Assembly: GCA_951406725.2 (NCBI GenBank) | Contig: OX597816.1 | Span: 39,618,001 to 39,682,000, forward strand | DNA from: Octopus vulgaris | Lineage: Eukaryota | DNA: 64,000 nucleotides | Reading direction: 5' to 3' | Shown: one piece after another, positions 38,259-38,668 of the stretch | Position numbering within the stretch: position 1 is the first letter of the stretch | Layout of the letters: each line of letters starts with the position of its first letter | The notes under the pieces: model-generated | Databases searched by the model: none | Seen by the model: only the letters and a program-made list of their open reading frames with translations | Told to the model about the DNA's origin: nothing | Made by a program: the position numbers and the translations under genes

Positions 38259-38668
38259 TGACGTATATTTGCCATTTAAATATGGCTAACCCCTAAGGGT
38301 GGATGCTACTGTAGTTTGTAGCCCCAGGAGGACACCTCTTCCAGCTGGCTATAGACACACTTTCTGTGCCCAATCAGTATTTGCAAAGGGAAGCCATCCT
38401 TCCCGTCTCCAACTTATGATACACACGGACTCGAGTTTCTGGATATTGACCCATCATCGGCGTGTGACAATCACAGTTGTCGATGAAAAGTAGGTTCCCT
38501 TCACAAATCATAAGTTGGAGACGGGAAGGATGGCTTCCCTTTGCAAATACTGATAGGGCACAGAAAGTGTGTCTATAGCCAGCTGGAGGAGGTGTCCTCC
38601 TGGGGCTACAAACTATAGTAGCATCCATCCTTAGGGGTTAGCCATATTTAAATGGCAAATATACGTCA
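38259..38668. mobile_element. Long hairpin element (arms of about 162 bp with few mismatches) with a hammerhead motif in the loop
   Basis: Arm 38259-38420 is the reverse complement of 38508-38668; the mirrored ORFs 38299+ and 38374- reflect this. Confidence 0.85.
38422..38466 (-). ncRNA. Minimal type I hammerhead ribozyme motif (U4C core variant)
   Basis: Minus strand reads CACACG-CCGATGA-TGGGT(caat)ATCCA-GAAA-CTCGAG-TC-CGTGTG: 6-bp stem I, 5-bp stem II, palindromic stem III, GUC cleavage triplet. Confidence 0.75.

Follow-up and report, generated by a model that had tools for sequence, protein, structure and literature searches.

A 461-bp non-coding insert of an abundant hammerhead family, likely of Penelope type, in intron 4 of an Octopus vulgaris calpain gene

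An intron of a calpain gene in Octopus vulgaris contains a long, near-perfect inverted repeat with a hammerhead ribozyme motif in its loop, which raises the questions of how such a structure arose and whether it matters to its host gene. These questions were addressed in a window of 64,000 nt, the whole stretch of DNA analysed here (OX597816.1:39,618,001-39,682,000, assembly GCA_951406725.2); coordinates are 1-based positions on its plus strand. We conclude with good confidence that the structure is a 461-bp non-coding insert of an abundant hammerhead family, likely placed in calpain intron 4 by a Penelope-type RT/endonuclease, and probably neutral for the gene.

Anatomy of the insert and its hammerhead

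The original prediction described an inverted repeat with 162-nt arms, and these were found at 38259-38420 and 38507-38668 with 4 differences between them; the distance from the end of the right arm to the start of calpain exon 5 is 83 nt, also as predicted. The spacer measures 86 nt rather than 87 nt, and the insert does not start with the left arm at 38259, but reaches 51 nt further left, to 38208. The whole insert spans 38208-38668 (461 bp). It is bounded by a 10-bp exact direct repeat (38198-38207 and 38669-38678, plus strand), a candidate target-site duplication that is the longest exact repeat between the flanks and has a chance of occurrence of ~5e-4 to 1e-3, and AATT flanks it externally on both sides. 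Because the last 3 nt of the left 10-mer are also family sequence beyond the tail (microhomology), the duplication, as read from one allele, is 7-10 bp long.

Alignment with contigs of the repeat family, described below, divides the insert into two unequal copies. The first is a 5'-truncated sense copy on the minus strand. It consists of a 51-nt tail (38208-38258), where family depth begins and which is an optional 3' extension found on one side only, the left arm (38259-38420), which is the 3' part of the copy and is contiguous with both tail and spacer in family contigs, and the spacer (38421-38506), which is its 5' part and contains the hammerhead and the 5' strand of an extended helix I. 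This copy is joined head-to-head to a shorter inverted copy, the right arm (38507-38668, plus strand), which is also 5'-truncated and lacks the tail. The inversion junction at 38507-38508 has a 2-nt microhomology, with family contigs aligning through 38508 and the right arm from 38507. The inner end of the right arm falls 7 nt short of the predicted ribozyme cut site.

Both arms carry a letter that is rare in the family, C at 38409 and at the mirror position, where the family has T in 97.6-99.5% of depth, which indicates that the arms came from one source RNA. Each arm has gained 2 private substitutions since insertion. The arm divergence of 2.5% corresponds to ~3.5 Myr (95% interval 0.9-8.8) on a rate scale borrowed from PMC13282606 (JC 0.09 = 25 Myr), an estimate that ignores RT errors and gene conversion. 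The repeat is high-copy and its exact locus is known from the assembly alone, so that the inverted layout might be thought an assembly error. The private substitutions in each arm argue against this, and a misjoin would not make a flanking duplication, a one-sided tail and ends that match those of the family; we consider such an error very improbable.

The spacer contains a type I hammerhead motif on the minus strand (38422-38466), which reads as originally described. Helix I (38466-38461 paired with 38427-38422, 6 bp) is followed by the core CCGAUGA (38460-38454), a 5-bp helix II, GAAA, a palindromic helix III (38436-38429) and GUC, with predicted cleavage between 38428 and 38427. The unusual C instead of U at core position 4 was confirmed (38459). 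A hammerhead descriptor gave this single match in the 64 kb, and a strict descriptor gave 0 matches in 30 order-3 Markov sequences of 64 kb. The Rfam model RF00163 (Hammerhead_1) matched 38422-38466 over its whole length with 17.3 bits (E 0.076, 131-nt query), below the gathering threshold of 34 bits, and no hammerhead was among the 113 matches of a whole-window Rfam scan.

The motif is real, but calling it well-formed, as the original prediction did, was generous. Helix II opens with a U-A pair instead of the usual G-C and includes one G-U, a single A precedes G12 where G10.1-C11.1 is usual, in the monomer helix III has only 2 bp, and in the minimum-energy fold helix I survives but the core is mispaired. 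A monomer constrained to helices I and II and an unpaired core is less stable by 3.8 kcal/mol. Two copies of the palindrome can pair as an 8-bp duplex (-10.7 kcal/mol), which the free dimer fold does not adopt. On the descriptor and sub-threshold Rfam matches, we class the motif as a dimer-type C4 hammerhead whose activity is predicted.

Overlooked in the original prediction was the setting of the motif: the minus strand of 38370-38510 folds into a long stem that prolongs helix I and is capped by the hammerhead. The extension, predicted from the fold and from shuffles, is imperfect and adds 34 pairs (38379-38508). The fold has a z of -4.77 on the minus strand (0/200 shuffles as stable) versus -2.38 on the plus strand (2/200). 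The stronger fold on the minus strand, on which the hammerhead also lies, confirms this strand as the RNA strand of the element.

The repeat family and the origin of the insert

Part of the stretch was present in 20 of 24 listed public runs; no RNA run containing it was among those listed, which says nothing about expression. The family was read from the contigs of 4 runs, drawn from 3 studies and carrying 3 organism labels, aligned to 38110-38530 at 80% likeness. No contig in these 4 runs covered 38110-38184 or 38515-38530; the records were filtered, and such holes are uninformative on the presence or absence of the insertion. Summed depth peaked on the arm at 0.37-2.1 million, compared with a median of 7-47 for long pieces (8 listed per run), and fell to 750-9,000 at 38500-38514. 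Because summed contig depth is not copy number, the ratios of peak to median (40,000-54,000) and of depth at 38459 to median (1,200-3,900) are orders of magnitude only, and put the family very roughly at tens of thousands of copies. A 24-nt family motif matched neither metagenome contigs nor viral contigs (0 in each).

Mixed AT-rich loose ends, with an agreement of 0.45-0.52, piled up before 38209 (32-42 contigs, 4/4 runs) and before 38258 (33-39 contigs, 3/4 runs among the 24 of 957 loose ends listed), which indicates that the family has two fixed 3' ends separated by ~50 nt. On the left arm side the insert extends to the outer of these ends, and on the other side the right arm comes to a stop no more than 1 nt from the inner end. 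Strand switches were found at no fewer than nine other breakpoints among the 15 of 18 joints listed, each in one contig. The differing breakpoints suggest that inversion is recurrent with variable junctions, although joints at 80% likeness may derive from other repeats.

The proposal of a fairly young Penelope-type inverted insertion is borne out by these features. The locus has a 5'-truncated copy with an adjacent inverted copy, head-to-head; an optional tail at one end, given by two fixed 3' ends (38209 and 38258); a short duplication, exact over 10 bp, at both boundaries; and AT-rich targets, seen in the loose ends and in the AATT outside the duplication. To these are added the recurrent inversions and the 2.5% divergence. 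The footprint reported for endonuclease-bearing Penelope elements consists of an inverted pLTR, an optional 31-bp tail, an 8-10-bp duplication, as in Adineta, and head-to-head junctions (PMC3846280, PMC8557442). A truncated inverted copy, a head-to-head junction, a one-end tail, a duplication and AT-rich targets are found in both. The octopus insert differs in its 51-nt tail against the published 30-40, in its very high copy number and probably non-coding source, and in lacking an RT/GIY-YIG frame, neither ORF being found in the 461 bp, which also gave no Pfam match. The absence of these ORFs sets it apart from an autonomous Penelope-like element.

In vitro, the Anolis Poseidon enzyme PAc was reported to cut and extend both DNA strands, with two RT start sites bounding the tail and a preference for ATT (PMC11167929). 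The octopus tail likewise lies between two start points, and the AATT beside the duplication resembles the ATT preference. By analogy, a staggered cut ~10 nt apart in AT-rich DNA would supply two primer ends. The cDNA made from the first would begin at the tail end and read through the ribozyme, and that made from the second would begin 50 nt further in and halt just short of the cut site, after which the two cDNAs could be joined via the 2-nt microhomology. The RNA copied would probably be a retrozyme-like unit of ~353 nt. No autonomous partner element came to light in the analysis. Simple fold-back priming of one cDNA can yield an arm with the identical microhomology, and in PMC3846280 head-to-head junctions are attributed to self-priming on an antisense template, which competes with two-ended priming as an explanation. 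Fold-back priming leaves unexplained why the arm stops at the second fixed end of the family, and we rank it below two-ended priming.

A MITE or foldback DNA transposon would also account for inverted arms that are long and nearly perfect and for a short duplication at the flanks; the arms would then be terminal inverted repeats and the hammerhead a chance or captured motif. The data speak against this: the duplication sits 51 nt from the left arm, family depth is not flat but strongly polar, and the inversion points vary among copies (nine or more others among the joints listed). Further, the spacer belongs to the family sequence and runs on into a single arm, and family variants improve helix II, the G-U of this locus at 38443 being G-C in 92-96% of family depth. 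The transposon reading is already largely refuted, and we give it hardly any weight.

The source of a Penelope-type insertion can be approached through the family sequence on either side of the insert. Beyond the tail, further family sequence is marked by a loose end before 38205 (11 contigs in one run and 18 in another, agreement 0.75-0.78); beyond the 5' truncation it is marked by one behind 38508 (9-17 contigs per run, 4/4 runs). The far ends of the two loose-end consensuses overlap by eye, which would close a unit of 304 + 49 = 353 nt. Measured against the consensus of one run, the overlap agreed at 9, 7, 6 and 5 of 10 letters over the four runs, and because no contig spans the closure, it is suggestive only. 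We propose that the source unit is probably ~353 nt long, non-coding and retrozyme-like.

In an alternative that leaves the insertion mechanism unchanged and supplies a different source RNA, the insert would be the stump (pLTR end and inverted pLTR) of an autonomous Penelope. One frame is indeed open for 44 codons across the spacer and ribozyme, family sequence extends on both sides, autonomous Penelope stumps with exactly such a layout have been published (PMC8557442, PMC3846280), and recently active Penelope families are reported for Octopus vulgaris (PMC13282606). Against this, the two continuations seem to join up within 49 nt, the 44-codon stretch had no homologue among longer proteins (a search that is weak for 44 residues) and no Pfam match, and the long helix I and the size suit small structured RNAs. 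We consider an autonomous source possible but less likely than a small non-coding unit.

A non-coding source would bring the family close to the metazoan non-LTR retrozymes, whose non-coding units span about 170-400 nt. Mussel retrozymes measure 350-390 bp (PMC7229834), close to the 353 nt proposed for the octopus unit, and a 2026 preprint derives animal retrozymes from Penelope ends (10.64898/2026.07.22.740005). Non-coding sequence, a structured RNA, a type I hammerhead, here with a short palindromic helix III and a C4 core, and a link to Penelope ends are common to both. The octopus copy differs in being shorter than one unit, inverted instead of tandem, and C4, with cleavage and circles that are putative. 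Because the locus contains less than a full unit and the 64 kb a single hammerhead, with no tandem arrangement here, we regard it as a retrozyme-like repeat mobilised by Penelope rather than as a true retrozyme.

Dimer-type hammerheads have been described in Penelope ends; they depend on dimer formation and show poor cleavage in vitro (PMC4209133). The octopus motif shares with them the 6-bp helix I, the short dimer-requiring palindromic helix III and high variability within a genome; in the same comparison, an extra base between positions 9 and 10.1 is likely, with C at 38453 in 67-92% of family depth. C4 in about half of the depth, the A before G12 and the sub-gathering Rfam score set it apart. 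A possible parallel to Anolis PAc, an ATG that starts at core position 9 and lies 27 nt ahead of the cut, was considered and dropped, as the family C at 38453 abolishes it.

Both the architecture and the RNA class are already known. Penelope-type inverted stumps with hammerheads have been described in many animals, and this locus is unremarkable in itself; the interest is in its family. A search of paper listings turned up no work on hammerheads or retrozymes in octopus, and the supplements of PMC13282606 and PMC4209133 may list the family.

Core position 4 and the depth step at the ribozyme

By implication, the original prediction treated C4 as a decayed U4, and it proposed a family consensus as the means of deciding whether U4 is ancestral. 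U4 made up 23,512/42,266, 54,726/157,929, 4,442/12,997 and 29,621/65,528 of depth in the four runs (56, 35, 34 and 45%), counts that were made against a C4 reference and that under-count subfamilies leaving the alignment at 38404, 38411 and 38474. No letter besides U was listed at ≥5% for position 4 among the rows listed, and the remaining depth is presumably C4, which corresponds very roughly to 550-2,200 C4 copies. Both letters are thus common in the family, and either may be ancestral. Since C4 is common in the family, the C4 source was mobile and C4 is not a lesion private to this copy, contrary to what had been implied. The site (38459) lies in a CpG.

A natural U4C hammerhead variant of a viroid is reported to have considerably lower activity in vitro and yet to retain infectivity (cited in PMC3088659). 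The core change is identical in the two systems. The viroid form is a variant of a pathogen RNA, whereas the octopus C4 is common to hundreds to thousands of genomic copies.

Loose ends shared among contigs at 38404, 38411 and 38474 point to at least one sister subfamily that differs between arm and ribozyme. In one sister-subfamily consensus, the helix III palindrome was changed and could still self-pair via G-U.

Family depth dropped 6.3-, 3.8-, 7.7- and 4.1-fold in the 4 runs between the bins 38410-38424 and 38440-38454, across the predicted cut, and the 7-nt shortfall of the inverted arm from the cut site was noted alongside this drop. One conceivable explanation is that the Penelope enzyme copies self-cleaved RNA, so that most cDNAs would end at the hammerhead. 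Uncut RNA would let the ribozyme be copied, so that the read-through minority would be enriched for the slow C4 core. We regard this proposal as rather unlikely. None of the 24 loose ends listed (of 957) marked a sharp family 5' end at the position of the cut, and the contig tabulation of the 4 runs listed no place with many ends. In addition, subfamily divergence begins near the depth step, and a circle closed by religation would be copied straight through in any case. The report on the Anolis enzyme describes no reads ending at the cut and no requirement for cleavage in vitro (PMC11167929), whereas the depth of the octopus family drops across the ribozyme.

If the proposal held, a C4 lineage would be present at hundreds or thousands of loci, and tens of thousands of insertion ends would constitute a natural assay of cleavage use. 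The hammerhead may or may not matter for the transposition of Penelope-like elements and retrozymes, the ribozyme being dispensable in vitro for Anolis PAc (PMC11167929). A huge family with U4 and C4 cores and a depth step at the ribozyme makes a direct genomic test feasible.

The hairpin in the calpain transcript and other elements of the window

The calpain gene lies on the plus strand, with five coding exons counted by motif (near 12512, 24628, 27791, 35495 and 38752) and the insert in intron 4. The three exons tested match PF00648 (E 2.5e-8, 0.003 and 0.0028). The best of these matches is coding exon 5 (38752-38929, ends read from sequence), and because this exon is 178 nt long, its skipping would shift the frame. 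Outside the hairpin, 38707-38751 (plus strand) contains candidate splice signals for the 3' end of intron 4: a branch point, a pyrimidine tract and an AG acceptor. The candidate branch point, judged by consensus, is CTAAC at 38707-38711, and the hairpin ends 38 nt before it.

With the motif on the minus strand and calpain on the plus strand, the ribozyme is antisense to the calpain pre-mRNA, as originally stated. Because the pre-mRNA carries the antisense strand, and the ribozyme is single and of the dimer type, it should not cut calpain RNA. The arms are predicted to pair in the pre-mRNA at 161 of 162 positions (3 G-U, 1 A-A; -353 kcal/mol, z -33.9), and such a long near-perfect duplex in a transcript would be a suitable ADAR substrate. 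Octopus shows very high levels of hyper-editing, which are linked to long duplexes (PMC5625713), and squid intronic editing overlaps repeats (PMC9068888). From these precedents, ADAR editing of the 162-bp duplex is likely, but would be ordinary. Insertions of this kind create ready-made perfect intron hairpins and may plausibly contribute to the high level of repeat editing in octopus, and nothing singles out the calpain copy.

A stronger claim would be that the hairpin is a splicing regulator of calpain, in which ADAR editing or the duplex itself alters the inclusion of exon 5 or opens a frame-breaking cryptic exon. The stability of the predicted duplex, its end close to the candidate branch point and the editing precedents speak for this. 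So do two splice-like sites. The best of 26 acceptor-like sites in intron 4 (38191-38193) lies just left of the insert and has 15/20 pyrimidines against 13 for the real acceptor, and one of 4 donor-like sites in the intron (38490-38495) sits in the hairpin loop. By these scores, which are crude counts, acceptor 38193 and donor 38490 could delimit an exon of 296 nt that contains stops in every frame.

Such a role is opposed by a predicted fold that includes exon 5, in which 38700-38755 pairs with the insert at a probability of ≤0.003 and looks much alike without the insert. A shorter fold that leaves out most of exon 5 gave a single position of 38700-38755 a pairing probability of 0.50 with the insert, against a mean of 0.058. 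The splice signals lie outside the duplex, and the insert is young and one of very many. The gene region, from 12500 to the window end, holds 23 other inverted alignments of ≥100 nt with arms ≤3 kb apart and 70-92% identity, so the calpain hairpin is the most perfect but not the sole duplex. All 3 of the 3 transitions give G-U on the plus strand, a pattern with a chance of 1 in 8. Overall, a regulatory role in calpain splicing appears improbable.

Several other elements were observed in the window. Calpain intron 1 contains a diverged full-length 5.8S rRNA-like copy (13217-13375, plus strand; RF00002, 106.5 bits, threshold 42), which is followed by an A-rich run and a SINE and is possibly a retroposed pseudogene or a SINE head. 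A complex young fold-back at 3618-4733 has arms at 3823-4184 and 4259-4620 (99%) around a 74-nt spacer, and a 97-nt perfect inverted piece at 3618-3714. Its 108-codon arm frame had no Pfam match and the descriptor found no canonical hammerhead in it; it is possibly another Penelope-type insertion.

A 56-nt segment at 7042-7097 has 79% identity to the outer end of the arm and is either an older captured relative of the arm or a common motif. It lies inside an element at ~6860-7170 that ends in a GC-rich hairpin and CTAGT, which we take to resemble a Helitron 3' end. A later calpain intron contains a fragment of a Pif1 helicase 2B domain (53433-54344, minus strand; PF21530, E 4e-11), probably a Helitron remnant. 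Further short fold-back or palindromic elements lie at 2146-2243, 2652-2927, 3290-3591 and 24261-24405.
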